This document shows positions 296-54,279 of a stretch of DNA of 54,448 nt, piece after piece; within the stretch, counting starts at the first letter, position 1; every line of letters starts with the position of its first letter. Origin of the DNA: a virus; the IMG/VR virus record IMGVR_UViG_3300045988_021759, positions 1 to 54,448 of that record. One strand, 5' to 3'. A program made the translations under genes and the position numbers. The notes beneath the pieces are model-generated. The model had not been told where the DNA came from and made no database searches. It saw only the letters and a program-made list of their open reading frames with translations.

Positions 296-562
296 TCACA
301 TCTCTTTGATACACCGGTTGGTCAGTTTGCCGTATACGTCCTCATACAGCTCTTGCTTGTCGCCGTTGTAGGTGTACTCAGCATAGACGCCATCCCCTGC
401 CACGGTGGTGGACAGCAGGGCCTTGTAGTTCTGGAGCGTCTTGCAAGCCCACACCACAAAGACGTTTTCGAGGGTGATTTTGGTTTCGCGGTTCTTATTG
501 TACCACTCAACCAGCGCGTTTTTGCACACGCTCTCGTATTTGGCCATGCCTGTGATAATCAT
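296..562 (-). CDS. Hypothetical small protein, last gene of the late operon
   Basis: ATG at 562 preceded by AAGGAGG. The ORF-track start at 640 lacks an SD. Confidence 0.6.
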   Translation of the reverse strand: MIITGMAKYESVCKNALVEWYNKNRETKITLENVFVVWACKTLQNYKALLSTTVAGDGVYAEYTYNGDKQELYEDVYGKLTNRCIKEM

Positions 563-602
563 ACAGATACCTCCTTGATGTTTGCGTGACGCCACGAAAA
601 CG

Positions 603-983
603 TCACATATAGACTTTCTGGCTGCGAACCTGAGCCTCAATCATCGGCTTCAGATAGCTGTCGAGGTCGCCGAAAGTTTCCTTGATGAACGTGACGGTCT
701 CCTGTGTCAGAGCTTTCTTCGCTGCGGCCAGTGCGCGGTTGTAGGCGACGCGCTGCGCGTCCTCGTCGAACTTGTCTGCCTCTTTGAGCGCGTCAACGTA
801 GGTCTGGTTGACGTACTGGACGGCATTGAACACGGCGTTTGCCGCATTCTGGAGGCAGCTCTGCGCGAACTTGTTGCTGATATAGCCGTTTGCGATGCTG
901 ACAGCCTTGTTCAAGGCCCAGCCAAAAGCCACGGTCAGAGCGGGGATGCAGGCGGTCAAAACGGTTTTCATGAGTTCGTCCAT
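603..983 (-). CDS. Putative holin, LL-H-like (N-terminal TM helix plus long helical tail)
   Basis: MDELMKTVLTACIPALTVAFGWAL... has one N-terminal hydrophobic helix. Located next to the endolysin. Confidence 0.6.
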   Translation of the reverse strand: MDELMKTVLTACIPALTVAFGWALNKAVSIANGYISNKFAQSCLQNAANAVFNAVQYVNQTYVDALKEADKFDEDAQRVAYNRALAAAKKALTQETVTFIKETFGDLDSYLKPMIEAQVRSQKVYM

Positions 984-985
984 AA

Positions 986-1276
986 TTATTCTCCTTCGTT
1001 TTCAGTGTTGTTGTCGGTGGTGGTGTTCTTCGGCTTTTTGTTCTTGATGGACGCCATCGCGCCAAACTCGACCATCCACGGCGCAGCCATGGCCGCAATA
1101 GCCAGACTGTCCGGGGCCGTGACGCTGTGCCAGTACAGCGCCAAAACAGCCGCGTCAAGCACAGTACACATGAACAGGCAATAGATTACTGCTTTATCCA
1201 TGAAACCGCGCTGTGACCGCTGTTTCTTGCGCTTATGGCGTCCATCAGCCTTGACATTGATGTGAAGTTCCTGCAT
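986..1276 (-). CDS. Small two-TM membrane protein (holin/antiholin candidate)
   Basis: ATG at 1276 with GAGGTG SD. Two hydrophobic segments (AVIYCLFMCTVLDAAVLALYW, LAIAAMAAPWMVEFGAMASI) and a charged C-tail. Confidence 0.55.
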   Translation of the reverse strand: MQELHINVKADGRHKRKKQRSQRGFMDKAVIYCLFMCTVLDAAVLALYWHSVTAPDSLAIAAMAAPWMVEFGAMASIKNKKPKNTTTDNNTENEGE

Positions 1277-1286
1277 AGATGTCACC

Positions 1287-1949
1287 TCACAGCTTTGCAA
1301 GGTACTTGTCCGCGCCGGACAGTGCCCGCCACGATGCAGGACCGCAGATGCCATCCACGGCCAGCTTGTGCTTCTCCTGCGCTTTCCGCAGGGCAGTTTC
1401 GGTCTTTTCACCGAAGATACCGTCCGGGGTCAGCTCCAACAGGCGCTGGAGCATCTTCGTCGCTGCCCGGTTTGCATCACCGGTGCAGCCCCGGCGAATG
1501 GTCGGCAGGATGAACTTCAGGTAGGTGGTGGACGGATAGTGCAGCGCCGCGTCGCACAGCCACGTTGCCTTAGCCCCGCGGGTGTCTGCATGACAGAACG
1601 CGTTCCCGCCGTACCAGTAGATGCCGACGCCGCCGAAACCGACCGCCTGAGCGATGATGCCCAGCGCGACCGGGTTCACGCTGCGGTCTTTGAGCCGCCA
1701 GTCAGCGGCCATGCCGTACCGGTGGCGGCTGTTCGTGCCGCCTTTCGCGTCCTGATTATGCTTCAGACAGCGGTAGCCGCTGGTGATCTTGATAGGCTTG
1801 CCCAACACAGTGCGGATGCGCTGGAGCTTTTCTGCCAGCTCAGGGTCTACCATCTGGGTGCTGCACCCACAGGGGCAGTCGAACTCAGACCGGACAAAAT
1901 CTTTGGTCAGCGCTGTTCCGTCGCCGCGCTTATAGGTGATAACGCTCAC
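1287..1949 (-). CDS. Endolysin: M15-type zinc peptidase domain plus C-terminal peptidoglycan-binding repeat
   Basis: SGYRC..HN...GG..SRH..G.AADW zinc-peptidase pattern. C-terminal LQRLL..PDGIFG..T..AL...Q......DGICGPASWRAL resembles a PG_binding_1 motif. Confidence 0.8.
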   Translation of the reverse strand: MSVITYKRGDGTALTKDFVRSEFDCPCGCSTQMVDPELAEKLQRIRTVLGKPIKITSGYRCLKHNQDAKGGTNSRHRYGMAADWRLKDRSVNPVALGIIAQAVGFGGVGIYWYGGNAFCHADTRGAKATWLCDAALHYPSTTYLKFILPTIRRGCTGDANRAATKMLQRLLELTPDGIFGEKTETALRKAQEKHKLAVDGICGPASWRALSGADKYLAKL

Positions 1950-1962
1950 GCCTCATACCTCC

Positions 1963-2394
1963 TTATAAAAAATCGTGCTTCTGCAATCTTTCGTCATACA
2001 CCCTGCTGATGTTCGCCACCGCGTGGGTACAGCGGTTGTTCTTGTAATCCGGGTGGTCGCGGCAGTAGTCCTCGTAATCGTCGATGATGGCAAGGACTTC
2101 AATGAAATGTTCTTTGGTGTGCTTTCGGTCGTCGATCAATTCATCGTTGAACCTCAAAATCTGGGTACGGAGCAGGTTGGCGTTCCGCTCGTCGTCAACT
2201 TTGATGTGTTCGTCGAGCTTCTGCTGTGTCTGCTTCTGCTGTTCCAACACCTCAGCGTTCAGAGCGTGGCCAATGAGCTGGGCCAGCTTGCTCCACGGAT
2301 TCAGCTTGATGGGCGAAATCTGCACGAGGGTCAGGAGGACCACGAGCGCCCCGCCCCCGGCTGTAAAAAGTTCCTTGATGTCGTCGATGTTCAA
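1963..2394 (-). CDS. Hypothetical protein with N-terminal TM helix (lysis-cassette associated)
   Basis: TTG start at 2394 with GGAGGA SD. GGGALVVLLTLVQISPI hydrophobic segment. Confidence 0.55.
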   Translation of the reverse strand: MNIDDIKELFTAGGGALVVLLTLVQISPIKLNPWSKLAQLIGHALNAEVLEQQKQTQQKLDEHIKVDDERNANLLRTQILRFNDELIDDRKHTKEHFIEVLAIIDDYEDYCRDHPDYKNNRCTHAVANISRVYDERLQKHDFL

Positions 2395-2406
2395 TGTCAG
2401 TCCTCC

Positions 2407-2447
2407 ATAATAAAAAGGCGGCCGCGTACCTCTACGCAGTCGCCTTT
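2407..2447 (-). terminator. Intrinsic terminator/attenuator upstream of the lysis cassette
   Basis: Outer stem aaaggcg/cgccttt with inner stem gcgta/tacgc. Minus strand continues TTTTTATTAT. Confidence 0.55.
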
Positions 2448-2463
2448 CCTGTTTTCTCCCTGC

Positions 2464-2670
2464 TTAGTCCTCGGTGATAAGGTCTTCGCAGCCGGAATCA
2501 ATGAGCAGCTCCCGAACCTTGCTCTTCAGCTTGGCAGGAACCTCAGCAAAAGTCTTTTTGCCGAACATAATCTGCTGTGCCCACAGCATTGCCATCATGA
2601 ACGTACCCTCCTTTCCGAATAAAATTTTGCAAAGAAAATGAGCAAGAATGTCCACGGCCAACTTAGCCAT
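2464..2670 (-). CDS. Hypothetical small protein (XkdX-like position after the tail fibre)
   Basis: 68-aa ORF in the operon, overlapping the upstream gene by 8 nt. Confidence 0.5.
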   Translation of the reverse strand: MAKLAVDILAHFLCKILFGKEGTFMMAMLWAQQIMFGKKTFAEVPAKLKSKVRELLIDSGCEDLITED

Positions 2671-3133
2671 AAACTTCCTCGCTCATCTCTAACAAGCAGT
2701 CCGTCAGCATCTGTACCTGCTTCTGCAAGCCAGCGCAGGTGTCAACCAACTGCTTTATATCTGCAACGGCGGGCTTTTGCTGCCCGCCGTTGTCACTTGT
2801 GTTATCGCCGCCGGAGCCGGTATCCTCGCCGCCAGTGCCGCCGGGGTCGGGCTCCGGGTTGTCCACCGTTCCGCCCGCCTCCAACTGCTCCAGCAGCGCT
2901 CTGTATTCTGCCTCTGTGATTTCCTCAGCGTCAACCTCGCCGTCGTATACAGCAGCCTCCGGCGGCGTATTGAGCCACGACGGGTGATAGTACCCGCTGC
3001 AATCCCGCGGACAGATGAACTCTGCCTTTGCAGGGTCGCAGACAAGCATCACGCCATGCTTGGGCTGCCAGCGCAGAAACACGTCATTGACGTCCAGTAC
3101 CTTGCCATCTGCAAGGATTTTATAAAAAATCAT
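2663..3133 (-). CDS. Hypothetical protein with Gly/Asp-rich linker
   Basis: ATG at 3133 overlaps the RT stop (ATGA). MIFYKILADGKVLDV... Confidence 0.6.
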   Translation of the reverse strand: MIFYKILADGKVLDVNDVFLRWQPKHGVMLVCDPAKAEFICPRDCSGYYHPSWLNTPPEAAVYDGEVDAEEITEAEYRALLEQLEAGGTVDNPEPDPGGTGGEDTGSGGDNTSDNGGQQKPAVADIKQLVDTCAGLQKQVQMLTDCLLEMSEEVYG

Positions 3134-4638
3134 GCGTACACTCCTTCCATTCGGTATCCGTGGAACAGCCGCCAGTACAGGGACAGCATTCCTTTTCTGG
3201 TCCGGTATGCGTCGGCGTGATAGGAGTTGCCAAACCACGCAGAGAACGACGCGAAAGCATCGTCCAGCCGCATGACGCCGCGCTGAACCATCCTTGCGAA
3301 CTTCTTCAGTTTGCGCCGCATTCGGACGATGCCGGCCCGCACGAGGTTCTTCACCAGATGTCCAGTGTCCGTCACCTTATAATAGATTTGCAGGAACTTC
3401 ATACCCTTGGAGGCTTTTGTGATCGCCGTTTTCTTGGCGTTCATCGAAAGCCCAACCTCGGCCGCCTCGCTCTGGATAGTCTGACCAACGTGCTTCAGCT
3501 CCTCTTTCGAGGGGCCAGCAGCCATGGTGTCGTCCATATACCGCTCGTAGGCCCGGACGCCCAGCTTGTCCTTGACGGCATGGTCAATCCCATTCGGGAT
3601 AACCAGCGCCATGGTCTGCGATTCTTGGCTGCCCAGCGTCAGACCAACGCCTTTATGCCGGCGCAGCTGCTCCGCTTTTGCCGCTCGTTCCGCTTCATCG
3701 GCAATTTCATGCAACTCGTTTTCCTGATACATCCGGGCGATCTTCATGCCAAGGCCCTGAAGCATCCGGTCAAGCCGGATTTCTCGGAATCTTTTCAGGC
3801 AATCGCTGTGCCGGAGGTGGTCAAAGAACTTTGTGAAGTCGCCGGTCATAATGAAAAAGCCGTTGCCGTATTTCGCGGCCAGCTCTTTCAGGAACATTGC
3901 CAGCCGGTTCCGGGCATCTGTGACGCCCTTTCCCTTAACGCTGGCCGGGTTATCTCGAATCAGGGTGCGCTCTGTCAGCGGCACAAGGCAGCTGTCACAA
4001 TAGCAGCCCTGCACAACGCGGCAGTCAATCATGACTGCATGGATCTCGCGCAGCTTGCCGCGCTCATGTAGCATGATTCGTCGGATTGTGGCATCGACGT
4101 TCAGTTTACCCTCCAGCAGCGAATCTTTCAGCCGTTTCAGCTTCAGGATTGCGTGGAAGATGAAGCGCTGCACATTGCCCTTCCACTCCACGCCCTTCCG
4201 GCGCTTCTGCAAGGACTTCATCAGATTTTGGATGGTGAACACGCTGCGAAAATCGCCCAGCGGGGTCACATCCTGCAACCGCTGTTCCCGGCTCTTTACC
4301 CGGTCCAGAGCTTTGATACGCAGCTCCGCATAGGGAGTGCGCGGCTCCAGCGCGGTTTCTATCTGCTCCCGGACAGGTTTCCCATGCCAGCAGCAGCGGC
4401 GGGCTGCATCGTTGGCGGCCTTGGTCAGCAGTTCCAGATCAATGCTGCCGTTCTCTCGCCACGTTCCGCGCGCCCGCGCTTCTCGTTTTGCGGCTTTCCG
4501 AGCTTTACTTCGCTCTATCCTAGCCATGATTTGTTCTCGATTGGTCAAAGAATCTACGCCCTTCCTGCTACTTATAGTGTGCATTCTAAACAGGTTTGCG
4601 AAGCGGTGATGAAACAGGCCCAGCACATGACCTGCCAT
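3130..4638 (-). CDS. DGR-type reverse transcriptase (exact start uncertain: 4638, 4584 or 4527)
   Basis: RYMDDTMAAG (YxDD) motif. LTLGSQESQ resembles the DGR-RT GxxxSQ motif. Sits 160 nt downstream of TR. Confidence 0.85.
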   Translation of the reverse strand: MAGHVLGLFHHRFANLFRMHTISSRKGVDSLTNREQIMARIERSKARKAAKREARARGTWRENGSIDLELLTKAANDAARRCCWHGKPVREQIETALEPRTPYAELRIKALDRVKSREQRLQDVTPLGDFRSVFTIQNLMKSLQKRRKGVEWKGNVQRFIFHAILKLKRLKDSLLEGKLNVDATIRRIMLHERGKLREIHAVMIDCRVVQGCYCDSCLVPLTERTLIRDNPASVKGKGVTDARNRLAMFLKELAAKYGNGFFIMTGDFTKFFDHLRHSDCLKRFREIRLDRMLQGLGMKIARMYQENELHEIADEAERAAKAEQLRRHKGVGLTLGSQESQTMALVIPNGIDHAVKDKLGVRAYERYMDDTMAAGPSKEELKHVGQTIQSEAAEVGLSMNAKKTAITKASKGMKFLQIYYKVTDTGHLVKNLVRAGIVRMRRKLKKFARMVQRGVMRLDDAFASFSAWFGNSYHADAYRTRKGMLSLYWRLFHGYRMEGVYA

Positions 4639-4797
4639 GAAAGAATCGTCCCGCCGCCCCGCTCAGGGACACCGATACGGTGCGCCAGCCTTAAAACAGG
4701 CCAGCCATCAATTTACCGCCGTTTCAGACGGAAGGTTGCACGTTCCTTCAATATTCTCTGGATATTTTCACCCTTATACATGGTTACTTTCAAACAT

Positions 4798-4922
4798 TGA
4801 ATCCGGGGCAGAACGCCGTTATTGTTCGTTGCGTTGTTGTTGTTGCCCACATTACCGTTGTTGTTCACATTGTTGAAGTTGGTAGAGTTGGACACCGAAG
4901 CATCGCGAAGCCAATACCACCG
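4798..4922 (-). repeat. DGR template repeat (TR)
   Basis: 125 bp collinear with VR (offset +1121). On the coding strand it is AAY-rich (translates ...NSTNFNNVNNNGNVGNNNNATNNNG...). Confidence 0.9.
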
Positions 4923-25497: not shown

Positions 25498-25620
25498 AGG
25501 ATGCCTCCGGTTCAGCAACTAAGCGTTTTAAGTCGTCGCTCTGACTTGTTGCCCCTGCCTTGTTAAGTCCGCAGGTAGACTGATATTGCGCCCTCTTTGG
25601 CCTCATGCGGCCGCAGCGGG

Positions 25621-32660: not shown

Positions 32661-32713
32661 ACAAAATGAAACAGAGGGTTGTCCGTTGCTGGACAGCCCT
32701 CTGTTTTTGTTTT
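32661..32713. terminator. Very strong (14-bp stem) bidirectional intrinsic terminator between tRNA-Lys and the late operon
   Basis: Stem acagagggttgtcc/ggacagccctctgt, with T-runs on both strands. Confidence 0.8.
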
Positions 32714-32788
32714 GGTGCGCCCGGTGGGACTTGGACCCACGGCTTCAGGATTAAAAGTCCTGTACTCTACCAACTGAGCTACGAGCGC
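32713..32788 (-). tRNA. tRNA-Lys (anticodon UUU), 76 nt with encoded CCA; T-loop has C at position 55
   Basis: GCGCTCG-TA-GCTC-AGTTGGTA-GAGT-A-CAGGA-CTTTTAA-TCCTG-AAGCC-GTGGG-TCCAAGT-CCCAC-CGGGCGC-A-CCA folds as a cloverleaf. Confidence 0.8.
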
Positions 32789-32869: not shown

Positions 32870-33002
32870 AGCCGATGGCTGGACTTGAACCAGCACCACA
32901 AGAGTTTCAATCCATCCGGGGACAGGCCGGACAGGGCCGCTCTTGCGTATCGTCAATGTGACCCGCCTTAACTGGGCGGCGCTCTGCTTGAGCTACAACG
33001 GC
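32870..33002 (-). ncRNA. Aberrant 133-nt tRNA-like gene (anticodon loop CAGUUAA, about 66-nt insertion before a canonical T-arm)
   Basis: GCCGTTG...CATCGGC acceptor (one T-T mismatch). CCGCC-CAGTTAA-GGCGG arm. Insertion closed by CAAGAG/CTCTTG. T-arm GCTGG-TTCAAGT-CCAGC. No encoded CCA. Confidence 0.4.
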
Positions 33003-44637: not shown

Positions 44638-44898
44638 TTATTTCTTCGGCGCTTTCTTGCGCTGCTTCTTCGCTGCGCTGACCGGGGCCAGCGGCTTCAT
44701 CAGCTTCGGCGGCTTCGGGTCGTTGCGATGGAGCTTGTAATTCTCCACGTCCTCTGCCTTAAAAAAGAACTTGCTCCTGCTGCCTTTCTCTCCGTGCGAG
44801 TATGCAACGAGCTTTCCTTCCAGTCTCATCTGGAGGACACGCTGACGGCAAACACCAAGGGCCTCTGCGGTTTCCTGCGTGGTGTAGTATTCAGGCAC
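44638..44898 (-). CDS. HTH (excisionase/MerR-type) DNA-binding protein
   Basis: YTTQETAEALGVCRQRVLQMRLEGKL motif. GTG start with AGGAGG SD. Immediately downstream of a hammerhead candidate. Confidence 0.6.
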   Translation of the reverse strand: MPEYYTTQETAEALGVCRQRVLQMRLEGKLVAYSHGEKGSRSKFFFKAEDVENYKLHRNDPKPPKLMKPLAPVSAAKKQRKKAPKK

Positions 44899-44920
44899 GT
44901 TCTATGCCTCCTTTCTGCGG

Positions 44921-44986
44921 TTGGCTCCCGCGACACCCTTTCGGGTGTTTCGGCTGCTGCCGTGCAGCCATCATCAGGCGGGTTCA
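44921..44986 (-). ncRNA. Type I hammerhead ribozyme candidate (copy 2)
   Basis: Minus strand: CCCGC-CUGAUGA-U-GGCUGC(ACGGCA)GCAGCC-GAA-ACACCC(GAAA)GGGUGU-C|GCGGG. Predicted cleavage after C17 (complement of 44932). Confidence 0.75.
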
Positions 44987-45160
44987 GTCTTTGATTTCAT
45001 GCACATCGGTGATTTCGTTGATGTCCAAGCCGTGACCTGTTTCGTCAATCAACCGCTGAACAACTACGTTGCGAGCATCTATCGGGTCAGTGGCGTTGAC
45101 TTGGTACGAATCCCAGAACCGGTCAGCCGTGTTGAAAATCGAAACTTCATAACATTTCAT
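44984..45160 (-). CDS. Small hypothetical protein (58 aa)
   Basis: ATG at 45160 preceded by GGAGGA. MKCYEVSIFNTADRFWDS... Confidence 0.5.
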   Translation of the reverse strand: MKCYEVSIFNTADRFWDSYQVNATDPIDARNVVVQRLIDETGHGLDINEITDVHEIKD

Positions 45161-45362: not shown

Positions 45363-45417
45363 CGCTAGTTATTATACTAGCTTTGAGCTAGTTTGTAAAT
45401 AGCTTTTCGCTAATTTT
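45363..45417 (-). promoter_or_regulatory. Promoter/operator cassette A (early promoter 2): -35 TTTACA (45394..45399), -10 TATAAT (45371..45376), GCTA/TAGC inverted repeats
   Basis: TTTACA-N17-TATAAT on the minus strand. About 50/55 identical to 52246..52300. GCTAG-N8-CTAGC overlaps the -10. Confidence 0.65.
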
Positions 45418-51423: not shown

Positions 51424-51663
51424 TCACACCTCCTTGATTTCTTCCCAGTCCGTGACCAGCCGGACACGGATGCGGCTTTCAATGACTTTCTGCTGCGGGT
51501 CGTCCGGGTAGCGGCCCGCAAGGGTCTGGATTGCGTTCTGCGCTTCCTCCAGCGTCCCGGCGTACCGCTTGGCGGCGGGCGACGTGTGCCAGATGGCATT
51601 CGCCCAGCGCGTCGGAGCGAATGCGAACTTGACCTGCGCAAGATACTCTTCGTGCATGGACAT
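51424..51663 (-). CDS. Hypothetical protein (immediately downstream of a hammerhead candidate)
   Basis: ATG with GGGAGG SD. Confidence 0.55.
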   Translation of the reverse strand: MSMHEEYLAQVKFAFAPTRWANAIWHTSPAAKRYAGTLEEAQNAIQTLAGRYPDDPQQKVIESRIRVRLVTDWEEIKEV

Positions 51664-51690
51664 CTAAAATCCTCCCAAAATCTAAATTGT

Positions 51691-51760
51691 GCGATGGCTC
51701 CCGCGACGCCCTTTCGGACGTTTCGACCTGTGCCGGAGGTCATCGTCAGGCGGGAAAAGC
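51691..51760 (-). ncRNA. Type I hammerhead ribozyme candidate (copy 1)
   Basis: Minus strand: UUUUCCCGC-CUGACGA-U-GACCU(CCGGCAC)AGGUC-GAA-ACGUCC(GAAA)GGGCGU-C|GCGGGAG. Predicted cleavage after the complement of 51705. The upstream ORF's stop codon is the UGA of the CUGA box. Confidence 0.75.
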
Positions 51761-52190: not shown

Positions 52191-52320
52191 TTGATTTTCT
52201 AGCTTGTGAGTGTTATTATTTAGCTAGTATCTAATTTATCTCTGCGCTAGTTATTATACTAGCTTTTCGCTAATTTGTAAATAGCTTTGCGCTAATTTTT
52301 TTGAAAAAATTTAGCTAACT
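52191..52320. promoter_or_regulatory. Divergent immunity-region promoters and operators (cassette B at 52246..52300)
   Basis: Minus strand: TTTACA (52276..52281)-N17-TATAAT (52253..52258). Plus strand: TTGATT (52191..52196)-N17-TATTAT (52214..52219). Multiple GCTA(R)-N8-9-(Y)TAGC inverted repeats. Confidence 0.65.
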
Positions 52321-52341
52321 GTGAGTTTTGGAGGTTATCCC

Positions 52342-52743
52342 ATGGGCGCTTTTATGTTTGATCGACTTGACTTCTTGCTAAAAAGAAACGGAATGACGAG
52401 AAAAGCGCTGTGCGCAGCATCTGGCCATGCGGACAATTATATTCGGATGTTCGAGAAGCGAAACACGGAGCCTCCGAGAGAATTTGTAAATTTCTGCGCT
52501 CAGAAGCTAGACACAACTAGCGCATACCTATTTGGCGAAACCGACGACCCGGCAGCGCCCAGCGCTCAGGTTGTGCAGCCGGAAAAAGAAAAAGGCCCCG
52601 CAGCTGAAAGCCACGGGGTCACAGATGAAGATTTGAAATTTGCACTCTTTGGGGGCGGGGACGTGACCGACGCTCAATTTGAAGAGGTCAAGTCCTTCGC
52701 TCGTTTCGTAAGGGAGCGAGATGCGAATGGACAGAGTAAATGA
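52342..52743 (+). CDS. XRE-family HTH repressor (cI-like)
   Basis: ATG at 52342 with GGAGG SD. LLKRNGMTRKALCAASGHADNYIRMFEKRN HTH. Divergent from the early operon. Confidence 0.75.
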   Translation: MGAFMFDRLDFLLKRNGMTRKALCAASGHADNYIRMFEKRNTEPPREFVNFCAQKLDTTSAYLFGETDDPAAPSAQVVQPEKEKGPAAESHGVTDEDLKFALFGGGDVTDAQFEEVKSFARFVRERDANGQSK

Positions 52744-53146
52744 ATTATATAGTATTGCAGAAGAAAACGGTGTGGAGGTCTATAACTTCCCGCTGCCGCT
52801 CACTGGCAGCCTGAGCGAAGAAATAGACGGACGCTGCTGCATCGGCATGGACAGCACTCGGCGCTTCACGCGAGCCGAGGAAGCTGCGCGGCTTGGGCAT
52901 GAGCTGGGCCATTGTCTCTATGGAGGCTTCTACACCAAGTTGACGCCCTTTGACATCAAGGAGCGCCACGAGGCCAGAGCCGACCGGTGGTACATCCGGC
53001 ACTTCATCCCAGAGGACAAGCTGATGTCCATGCTGGAAGCCGGGATGGATGCTTGCGAGATAGCGGAAGAGCTGGACACCACGGAAGAGTATGTCCGGCG
53101 GGCCTACTACTATTACAAAGACGTGAGAGGGGGTGTCTTTCATTGA
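52721..53146 (+). CDS. ImmA/IrrE-family zinc metalloprotease
   Basis: HELGHCLYG (HExxH) motif. Directly downstream of the XRE repressor. Confidence 0.8.
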   Translation: MRMDRVNELYSIAEENGVEVYNFPLPLTGSLSEEIDGRCCIGMDSTRRFTRAEEAARLGHELGHCLYGGFYTKLTPFDIKERHEARADRWYIRHFIPEDKLMSMLEAGMDACEIAEELDTTEEYVRRAYYYYKDVRGGVFH

Positions 53147-54279
53147 AAAAGAGAACGACAACGGCGGAATGGCAGGAATGCACGAAGCGCTGGAGAATCC
53201 GGGTGCAGAAGAACGGTGTTATGAAGAGCTTTTACAGCAGCACACCGGGCAGAACCGGCCAGCGTGAAGCGAATGCCAAGGCGGACGCATGGCTTGACGA
53301 CAGTGTCCGGGACGGCAGGAAGAAGATTTCCGTTCTCTATGCTGAATGGGTCGAAGAAAAGGGTCTGACCTGCGGCACATCCTACAAAGAGCAATGTGAG
53401 AAGTACGGCAACTACTACATTCTTCCGGTGATTGGGAACCTTAGAATCGAGGACTTGACAGAGGGCGATCTGCAAAAAGCAATTGACACCTCTTTCAAAA
53501 AGCGCTGCCTGTGCAAGCGTAAGGTCATGAAGAACAGTGATAAACCGTTGAGCAAAAAGACGCTCATGACCATCCGTTCCGTTGAGAACAGCTTCGTCAA
53601 GTGGTGCAGGAAGAATAAATACACCACGCTGATGCCAGAGCTGACGATTCCTAAAAACGCCCGCATTGGAGAGAAGAAGATTCTCCAGCCGGAGGCTCTG
53701 CGCATCTTGTTTTCGGTCGATACGCGGAGGTGGTACGCGAAGAACGTCTTCGACGAATACATCTACGCCTATCGTTTCGCCGTATCTACCGGTGTTCGTC
53801 CCGGTGAGCTGGTCGGCCTCTGGTACGGCGATATCAAGGGTAACACGGTCAACCTCCGGCGCAGCATCAACACGCTGGACGAGGAAACCACCGGCAAGAA
53901 CGAGAACAGCATCCGCTCTTTCGATATGTGCGAACAGGCGCGGGAAGCCTATGAAGCGCAGGTGCAGCTCTTAAAAGATTCTGGCATACAGCTCAACTAT
54001 AATACCCCGCTGTTTCAAATCCCTTGCCAGCGCTCCCTCAAACGCCGGTGGGAGAAGTATCAGGATGGAAACGGTATCAGCCCGCGCATCACTCTGTACG
54101 AGCTGCGTCACACCTTTGTCAGCATGGAGGCCGGGGAACTGACGGACGGCCAACTGAAGATGCTTGTCGGCCACAGCAGGAACATGGACACCTTCGGCGT
54201 ATACCGGCACGAGATCAAAGGCCAGCGCGAGGCGCTTGCAGCAGCCACGACGGCTGCCATCAACAAGGCGCACGGCTGA
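53143..54279 (+). CDS. int: Tyrosine integrase (TTG start)
   Basis: TTG at 53143 with GAGAGGGGG SD. N-terminal arm-binding-like WRIRVQKNGV...ANAKADAWL. Catalytic LYELRHTFVS and GHSRNMDTFGVYRH motifs. Confidence 0.85.
   Translation: MKKRTTTAEWQECTKRWRIRVQKNGVMKSFYSSTPGRTGQREANAKADAWLDDSVRDGRKKISVLYAEWVEEKGLTCGTSYKEQCEKYGNYYILPVIGNLRIEDLTEGDLQKAIDTSFKKRCLCKRKVMKNSDKPLSKKTLMTIRSVENSFVKWCRKNKYTTLMPELTIPKNARIGEKKILQPEALRILFSVDTRRWYAKNVFDEYIYAYRFAVSTGVRPGELVGLWYGDIKGNTVNLRRSINTLDEETTGKNENSIRSFDMCEQAREAYEAQVQLLKDSGIQLNYNTPLFQIPCQRSLKRRWEKYQDGNGISPRITLYELRHTFVSMEAGELTDGQLKMLVGHSRNMDTFGVYRHEIKGQREALAAATTAAINKAHG

Follow-up and report, generated by a model that had tools for sequence, protein, structure and literature searches.

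We analysed a 54,448-nucleotide stretch of viral DNA (IMG/VR virus record IMGVR_UViG_3300045988_021759, positions 1 to 54,448, called the window in the following) and found on its minus strand two elements, HH1 and HH2, which are probably type I self-cleaving hammerhead ribozymes. They lie in early minus-strand operons of what appears to be a temperate phage of a Faecalibacterium/Oscillospiraceae-type host, and would split polycistronic mRNA. Judged from comparative sequence analysis, the 56-nt element HH1 (44927-44982, minus strand) is very probably a genuine hammerhead that cleaves itself, and its most likely function is the processing of polycistronic early mRNA. HH1 had been proposed as a hammerhead in an initial annotation of the window, which had not seen the second copy HH2, a pseudoknot joining loop II to the tail, a hairpin at the 5' end of the 3' product, or the size of the family to which both copies belong.

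Direct reading of the minus strand bore out the claim that all hammerhead core elements are present in the right order, which is that of type I. The strand reads ...GACUGA A CCCGC CUGAUGA U GGCUGC-ACGGCA-GCAGCC GAA ACACCC-GAAA-GGGUGU C GCGGG A GCC AA CCGC AGAAAGGAGGCAUAGAAC GUG and is divided as follows:

44978-44982, minus strand: 5' strand of stem I, CCCGC, pairing with 44927-44931 and covarying in the family
44971-44977, minus strand: core positions C3 to A9, CUGAUGA, from direct reading
44970, minus strand: extra U ('U10') between A9 and G10.1, from direct reading
44952-44969, minus strand: stem II GGCUGC/GCAGCC with loop II ACGGCA, from reading, fold and covariation
44959-44961, minus strand: 5' strand of the predicted pseudoknot, GGC, within loop II
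44949-44951, minus strand: core G12, A13 and A14 (GAA), invariant in the family
44933-44948, minus strand: stem III hairpin ACACCC-GAAA-GGGUGU with the closing pair A15.1-U16.1, from reading, fold and covariation
44932, minus strand: C17, with the predicted cut on its 3' side, between 44932 and 44931
44927-44931, minus strand: 3' strand of stem I, GCGGG, which would form the first 5 nt of the 3' product
44923-44925, minus strand: 3' strand of the predicted pseudoknot, GCC, one spacer A after stem I, with GGC of loop II as its partner
44917-44920, minus strand: CCGC, which can pair with GCGG at 44928-44931 to give a 5'-terminal hairpin of the 3' product and thereby excludes stem I

The G10.1-C11.1 pair, the A15.1-U16.1 pair and an NUH triplet (GUC), all of them required in the hammerhead class, are present. 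Stem I is open and bears the 5' and 3' ends, whereas stems II and III are closed by loops, and this type I topology holds for HH1, for HH2 and for all relatives found. The three-way junction of HH1 is the minimum-free-energy fold (-30.2 kcal/mol, z = -2.95); none of 200 shuffled sequences folded equally well, and the hammerhead stayed the minimum-energy structure in a context of 131 nt with 50 nt on each side.

To search beyond HH1 we used a type I descriptor consisting of CUGANGA, an insertion of 0-1 nt, a hairpin, GAA, a hairpin running from A to U, H and stem I, which leaves loop, tail and presence of the insertion unconstrained. It matched the window exactly twice, at HH1 and HH2, both on the minus strand and with every stem at least 5 bp long. 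When the window was shuffled 400 times with its dinucleotides preserved and both strands were scanned, 0.02 matches per window were obtained with stems of at least 3 bp, 0.0025 with at least 4 bp and none with at least 5 bp. The second copy comprises the following parts:

51700-51756, minus strand: HH2, (UU)CCCGC CUGACGA U GACCU-CCGGCAC-AGGUC GAA ACGUCC-GAAA-GGGCGU C GCGGG A GCC, found with the descriptor and scoring 72.9 bits with the family model
51705, minus strand: C17 of HH2, after which the cut is predicted; the extra U is at 51742
51746-51748, minus strand: core UGA, doubling as stop codon of the upstream open reading frame (ORF) of 83 amino acids (aa)
51696-51698, minus strand: predicted pseudoknot strand GCC
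51691-51694, minus strand: UCGC, which can pair with GCGG of the 3' product, including one G-U pair
51671-51676, minus strand: Shine-Dalgarno (SD) sequence GGGAGG, followed at 51661-51663 by the ATG of a 79-aa gene, 41 nt past the predicted HH2 cut

Compared with HH1, this copy has the same extra U, a different N7 and compensatory changes in stems II and III. No copies beyond these two were found in the window with the family covariance model R1 run with filters off (75.6 and 72.9 bits, next best 13.5).

Distinct relatives of the two elements number more than 300 and come from IMG/VR phage contigs, bacterial prophages and Faecalibacterium phage FP_Brigit. Pattern scanning of IMG/VR, done twice, yielded at least 120 loci each time, and the descriptor, run over the listed IMG/VR loci and the window (2.09 Mb), gave at least 292 instances, at least 207 of them unique, often with 2-5 per locus. 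Model R1 was built on an alignment of 41 diverse members (A2) and produced 133 matches at E<1e-4 in 100 sources, of which 104 are distinct and make up alignment A3. A scan of GTDB representative genomes added copies in metagenome-assembled genomes (MAGs) of Oscillospiraceae and other Clostridia, in Faecalibacterium, Flavonifractor, Oscillibacter and Christensenellales, and further copies in Paenibacillus, Cohnella and Desulfosporosinus (with Paenibacillaceae among the host groups), in Selenomonadales (Negativicutes) and in filamentous cyanobacteria. About 25 of the 120 genome-scan loci (Proteobacteria, Mycobacterium, Verrucomicrobiales, Thermoplasmatota and others) match the pattern and fail both descriptor and R1; they were set aside as chance matches because their number is close to a rough estimate of ~40 expected by chance. 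One Saccharibacteria MAG and one Barnesiella bin each gave a single match with sequence of the gut-phage type, which may be a binning artefact. The FP_Brigit copy (NC_047909.1, 52972-53041, locus L348) lies between gp72 and gp73, scores 78.9 bits with R1 and is unannotated in the record. The only matches from a megablast search with the phage sequence were a weak one to Faecalibacterium phage Pioen and one of 35 nt, within the ribozyme, to a Christensenellales phage.

In A3, C3, G5, A6, G8, A9, G12, A13, A14, A15.1, U16.1 and C17 are each present in 104 of 104 sequences, as is C11.1, while U4 occurs in 101 and G10.1 in 96 of them. Position N7, the one core position of hammerheads known to vary freely, is U in 52, C in 50 and A in 2 sequences. 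An invariant core combined with a free N7 is the signature expected of a functional hammerhead. The helices, in turn, vary in a compensatory manner: 92.7% of the cells of A3 are paired, compared with 73.7% after column shuffling and 25-41% with slid partners, and 15 of the 21 pairs change on both sides. The corresponding values for A2 are 95.9% against 77.4% in shuffles, with 16 of 21 pairs changing on both sides, and slid controls over both alignments gave 25-42% paired. Two-sided changes affect 2-3 pairs of stem I, 6 of stem II and 4 of stem III. With HH2, hundreds of relatives, the invariant core and these compensatory changes, the initial assignment to the type I hammerheads is supported.

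The additional nucleotide between A9 and G10.1 is a regular part of the family. Among the at least 207 unique descriptor members the position is occupied by U in 194, by G in 5 and by another nucleotide in 2 cases and is empty in 6; in A3 the counts are 87 for U, 10 for G and 7 empty, so that about 85-95% of the family carry the extra U. The statement of the initial annotation that such an insertion is known from natural hammerheads is documented in the literature, where an extra nucleotide at this place is described as natural and tolerated variation (PMC1636495, PMC3705267, PMC4209133). The (+) hammerhead in CChMVd, the chrysanthemum chlorotic mottle viroid, has an extra A10 in nature (PMC1636495), and its exchange for U raised the cleavage rate 3-4-fold, according to the summary of De la Pena & Flores 2001 in a later article (PMC3705267). 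Because an extra nucleotide is documented there in natural hammerheads, the insertion is no argument against activity, and the conservation of U10 argues for its usefulness.

Stem I has only 5 bp and is open, and a tertiary contact is therefore needed. Loop II nearly always contains GGN, and its complement is found in the tail 1-2 nt past stem I. Loop GGC occurs with tail GCC 133 times and with ACC 7 times, whereas loop GGU occurs with tail ACC 27 times and with GCC once; the pseudoknot was never a requirement of the descriptor. Further pairings of loop and tail are GGGG:CCC, GGUU:AACC, GGGA:UCCC and GCGG:CCGC, and GACUC:GAGUC in cyanobacteria. For the central pseudoknot pairs of A3, one is G-C in 101 of 103 cells and the next is G-C in 44, C-G in 36 and U-A in 16. 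A pseudoknot of at least 4 bp can form in 65% of 337 elements, whereas 200 trials with permuted loops and tails gave 50% on average and never more than 55%. As predicted from these sequences, the covarying pseudoknot makes good the missing tertiary contact of a short, open stem I. Pseudoknots of this kind are reported for about 40% of hammerheads, of all three types (PMC3088659).

A further conserved pairing involves the sequence left after the predicted cut. The 3' strand of stem I, GCGGG, also pairs with (C)CCGC just past the pseudoknot strand, which in HH1 gives GCGG-GAGCCAA-CCGC, and structure prediction for the 3' product of HH1 indeed yields the 5' hairpin. In a second class of members the product hairpin is GGGAGC-CACA-GCUUCC instead. 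A hairpin of at least 4 bp starting in product nt 1-4 is possible in 98% of the elements, compared with 52% when the downstream sequence is shuffled. Where stem I has the variant GUGGG, CCCAC or CCAC follows downstream in 10 of 11 cases; GCAGG is accompanied by CUGC, and GGAAGC by GCUUUC. On these sequences, we regard covariation as better evidence for the product hairpin than thermodynamics. As the hairpin is built on the 3' strand of stem I, it could form only after, or instead of, stem I. A second predicted hairpin in the HH1 3' product, AGGCAU-AGAAC-GUGCCU (44896-44911, minus strand), pairs the 3' end of the SD sequence with the GTG start and might limit translation of the downstream helix-turn-helix gene.

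A sequence motif, GCU(C/U)(C/U)CAAAUC(A/G)A, directly follows the ribozyme in many loci (L336, L252, L238) and is part of the product hairpin of the second class. The same motif occurs inside enlarged stem III loops of other copies, e.g. ACCGGACAGCUCUCAAAUCGAGCGCCGGU, and these may be nested or recombined elements. Locus L336 from the genome scan has seven members on the minus strand in ~3 kb (descriptor offsets 370-3327), where nearly every small gene is flanked by a ribozyme and one copy has U in place of C at position 17. Loci L252, L238/L239, L320/L338 and L186 hold 4-5 copies each.

Several observations weigh against an interpretation as active ribozymes. The first is the outcome of an Rfam search, which the initial annotation had proposed as a check and whose failure it would have taken as a refutation: no hammerhead match was obtained, either in the whole window at gathering score or in slices of 181 nt and 65 nt at E<=10. 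This miss is a false negative, as the Rfam hammerhead models do not cover the architecture of the subfamily. It is not valid as a refutation because Rfam gave no hammerhead match either across 13 related loci with more than 30 family copies or to the insertion-free member L186:3195, which has a fully canonical core and perfect stems. We filed the element under the ribozyme class only, with no Rfam family, because no score reaches the gathering threshold. Secondly, HH2 in a context of 146 nt is not predicted to adopt the hammerhead as its minimum-energy fold, because an upstream CCCCGC competes for GCGGG; the prediction takes no account of the pseudoknot. The pseudoknot itself has only 3 bp (GGC:GCC) in both HH1 and HH2. 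The thermodynamic signal of the product hairpin is modest, with a mean pairing probability of 0.78 for nt 1-4 as opposed to 0.65 with shuffled downstream sequence, because a GC-rich end pairs easily with anything, and the GUGGG/CCCAC covariation spans perhaps 3-4 independent lineages. The descriptor-derived sets are biased to perfect stems and A3 was fitted to the structure of the model, but the two-sided changes and the slid controls hold despite both biases because they are independent of the choices made for descriptor and model. Lastly, no cleavage or transcript-end data were found in the literature for any member of the subfamily.

Weak Rfam matches to sR22, SNORD39 (C/D-box snoRNAs), mir-4989, CRISPR-DR17 and c-di-GMP-I-GGC were far below their gathering scores and were rejected as chance, fed by UGAUGA and hairpins. 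A reading as terminators was likewise dismissed, since there is no terminator-like site on the minus strand at HH1 or HH2.

One could argue from the missing Rfam match, the insertion in the core and the lack of activity data that the family is a non-catalytic structured RNA or DNA repeat with only the look of a hammerhead, or that the inserted U has disabled it and left a relic. We consider this very unlikely. More than 100 distinct sequences share all the constrained core positions without exception while their helices covary, and at most 0.0025 look-alikes are expected per window by chance; Rfam misses the insertion-free member, too. A decaying relic would not show conservation of the U itself (87 of 104), and in tested hammerheads an extra U at the same site increases activity (PMC3705267). 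An inactive hammerhead-like RNA of 'Faecalibacterium prausnitzii M21/2' (Perreault et al., Fig. S7) was considered and rejected as a relative: its AT-rich primer sequence is unrelated to the family, and for this reason it does not count against activity.

The genes around HH1 are arranged as follows:

44984-45160, minus strand: upstream ORF of 58 aa, whose TGA stop (44984-44986) ends 1 nt before stem I of HH1
44907-44914, minus strand: SD sequence AAAGGAGG, serving an 86-aa HTH_17 gene
44638-44898, minus strand: the 86-aa HTH_17 gene, with its GTG start at 44896-44898, 33 nt past the predicted HH1 cut

These positions confirm that the element sits between the stop of the 58-aa ORF and the next SD sequence, and with 33 nt the estimate of a cut about 35 nt ahead of the GTG at 44898 was correct. 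The layout is stereotyped in the family. Among the matches listed, 195 of 206 unique viral elements are followed by an SD sequence, a start codon and an ORF no more than 150 nt from the cut; this distance has a median of 42 nt and an interquartile range of 34-48. As for the upstream ORF, 64 elements have its stop codon ending 0-1 nt ahead of stem I, and in ~65-77 it coincides with the UGA of the CUGA core.

Based on these observations, we propose the following sequence of events. When the operon is transcribed, stems II and III would fold first and the 5-bp stem I (CCCGC/GCGGG) would then close the three-way junction. A pseudoknot of 3-5 bp between GGC of loop II and GCC of the tail would hold stems I and II parallel, replacing the classical loop-loop contact, and the RNA would cut itself co-transcriptionally after C17, i.e. 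at 44932 in HH1 and 51705 in HH2. Owing to the type I topology, almost all of the compact ribozyme would stay with the upstream cistron, which would keep its stop codon and gain a structured 3' end bearing a 2',3'-cyclic phosphate. The cistron downstream of the cut would start with a 5'-OH at G1.1, and its GCGG would re-pair with CCGC a few nucleotides downstream into a 5'-terminal hairpin ~10-25 nt ahead of the SD sequence. This hairpin may help to free the 5' fragment and prevent religation, making the cut irreversible, and it may hide the 5'-OH end and block 5'-end-dependent decay of the RNase J type. In Bacillota, enzymes of this type (RNase J1) attack 5'-OH products of ribozymes, as with glmS. 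The net result would be an early mRNA split into units with uncoupled stability and translation, each downstream unit bearing a standard protected 5' end.

Taken together, stop codon, type I hammerhead with U10 and pseudoknot, product hairpin and SD sequence could represent a natural 'ribozyme insulator cassette' that yields single-gene mRNAs by an irreversible cut, shields them from RNase J and allows modules to be swapped. We put this extended proposal forward only tentatively. As each gene would carry its own standard 5' end, gene modules would be swappable between phages at the ribozyme.

The same features can be arranged into a different scheme, in which an active ribozyme works as a conditional switch: the downstream CCGC or terminating ribosomes would compete with stem I, and upstream translation or folding kinetics would set the fraction cut and thereby downstream expression. 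In most members the stop codon is formed by the core UGA itself or ends at most 1 nt ahead of stem I, so that a terminating ribosome would unfold stem I and the core. Moreover, pairing of the downstream CCGC is incompatible with stem I, with which this segment covaries, and HH2 has the extra upstream competitor CCCCGC. However, the hammerhead of HH1 is the minimum-energy structure even with 50 nt of context per side, the competing CCGC is transcribed only after the ribozyme is complete, and before cleavage a local hairpin of 4 bp is weaker than the 5-bp stem I with the pseudoknot. As a ligand-binding or sensor domain is also absent, we regard a switch as rather unlikely.

Within IMG/VR loci L001-L227 we observed mosaic junctions at the ribozymes. 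One upstream gene end (12 instances) is joined to 7 different downstream sequences, and in front of one downstream gene (13 instances) there are 5 different upstream ends, with stems II and III re-assorted. Module swapping at the ribozyme would fit the position of these junctions. They could also mean that the hammerhead mainly marks or promotes recombination between gene modules, its sequence being spread as a boundary by homologous exchange with cleavage secondary or neutral. Apart from the joining of one upstream end to up to 7 downstream genes, of one downstream gene to up to 5 upstream ends, and the re-assortment of stems, such a role would be in line with the sequence of stem I and its flanks (CCCGCCUGAYGAUGG ... 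GUCGCGGGA), which varies unusually little by the standard of hammerhead helices. A role at the DNA level nevertheless leaves unexplained the strand-specific RNA covariation in four helices, the invariance of the catalytic nucleotides and the free N7, and junctions in phage mosaics commonly lie at gene boundaries anyway. Recombination as the main role is thus improbable, and processing of the early mRNA remains the preferred explanation.

The two ribozyme-bearing minus-strand operons of the window share a repeated layout of a promoter-like site, two tiny ORFs (53 and 58 aa at HH1, 53 and 83 aa at HH2) and the hammerhead. They run away from a plus-strand lysogeny module at 52321-54279, in which the last two of the features given here were read from the sequence alone:

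45371-45399, minus strand: promoter-like TTTACA-17-TATAAT (11/12), ~390 nt upstream of HH1, a consensus match only
52253-52281, minus strand: promoter-like TTTACA-17-TATAAT (11/12), ~500 nt upstream of HH2, likewise a consensus match only
52321-52743, plus strand: XRE/HTH_3 gene, a weak match in the Pfam search
52721-53146, plus strand: ORF with a metallopeptidase-like HELGH motif
52987-54279, plus strand: ORF of 430 aa, tyrosine integrase-like

Other structured RNAs were noted elsewhere on the minus strand. An RT-2 RNA (RF03077), a motif which we take to be associated with reverse transcriptase genes, was matched at full length by Rfam at 4536-4801 (67 bits), and a GP20-b RNA (RF03003) at 25520-25581 with 39.8 bits compared with a gathering score of 36.2. 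There are two tRNA sites, at 32713-32788 and 32870-33002. Rfam and ARAGORN agree on a tRNA-Lys(UUU). About 85 nt upstream of it and on the same strand, Rfam but not ARAGORN recognises another tRNA (39.3 bits), whose anticodon arm is followed by ~60 nt of inserted sequence and which could be an interrupted or degenerate tRNA.

That hammerheads cluster between prophage genes has been known since 2011 (Perreault et al. 2011, PMC3088659). Both the class and its context in prophage operons have thus been described already, and another such hammerhead is no surprise. What the present analysis exposes is a large subfamily in gut phages and prophages that current Rfam hammerhead models miss completely. 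Annotation pipelines consequently leave its elements unmarked, the copy in FP_Brigit being an example. The function of bacterial and phage hammerheads is still listed as open in reviews (PMC6765202). The stereotyped layout, with a stop codon at or in the core, type I topology, a covarying pseudoknot, a product hairpin and an SD sequence at a fixed distance, makes this question experimentally specific, and with FP_Brigit and F. prausnitzii a cultured phage-host pair carrying the element exists. If true, the insulator cassette would give bacterial and phage hammerheads a concrete function that can be tested.

The closest known systems are compared here in turn. With the prophage hammerheads of Perreault et al. 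(PMC3088659), the subfamily shares the catalytic core, the location between prophage genes, often with several copies per operon, a pseudoknot rather than a loop-loop interaction as tertiary contact, and the proposed cutting of polycistronic phage RNA into gene-length mRNAs. The best-described bacterial examples are of type II, and in them loop I forms the pseudoknot with the tail that follows stem II, whereas the elements described here are of type I and pair loop II with the tail after stem I. The nearly universal U after A9, the almost invariant stem I and the product hairpin also set the subfamily apart. Rfam Hammerhead_1 (RF00163) represents the same class and type I topology, but neither it nor the other families of the hammerhead clan scored the window element, the 13 copy-rich loci or the insertion-free member highly enough to be listed. 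The (+) hammerhead of CChMVd with A10, natural U10 hammerheads and the hammerhead ribozymes of Penelope-like elements likewise have one extra core nucleotide at the same position, which is compatible with activity, U being favourable (PMC1636495, PMC3705267, PMC4209133). These, however, come from viroids, satellites and eukaryotic retroelements, are mostly of type III or minimal type I, and process replicating or retrotransposing RNAs rather than intercistronic mRNA of phages. A hammerhead core stabilised by a pseudoknot is also found in PDB 8YDC (PMC11300833), in which the pseudoknot replaces helix II in a pistol-like architecture. Helix II is an ordinary hairpin in the subfamily with only its loop in the pseudoknot, and this difference in architecture rules out identity of the two.

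A parallel in design is an engineered one. Synthetic insulators of the RiboJ type (Lou et al. 2012) reportedly consist of the hammerhead of satellite tobacco ringspot virus (sTRSV) followed by a hairpin ahead of the ribosome-binding site. As they are said to be built, they have in common with the phage elements the order of ribozyme, cut, short 5' hairpin and ribosome-binding site as well as the removal of upstream context from the 5' untranslated region. They reportedly differ in being engineered and in using a type III ribozyme of viroid-satellite origin with a separate hairpin, whereas the predicted hairpin of the phage elements reuses the 3' strand of stem I.

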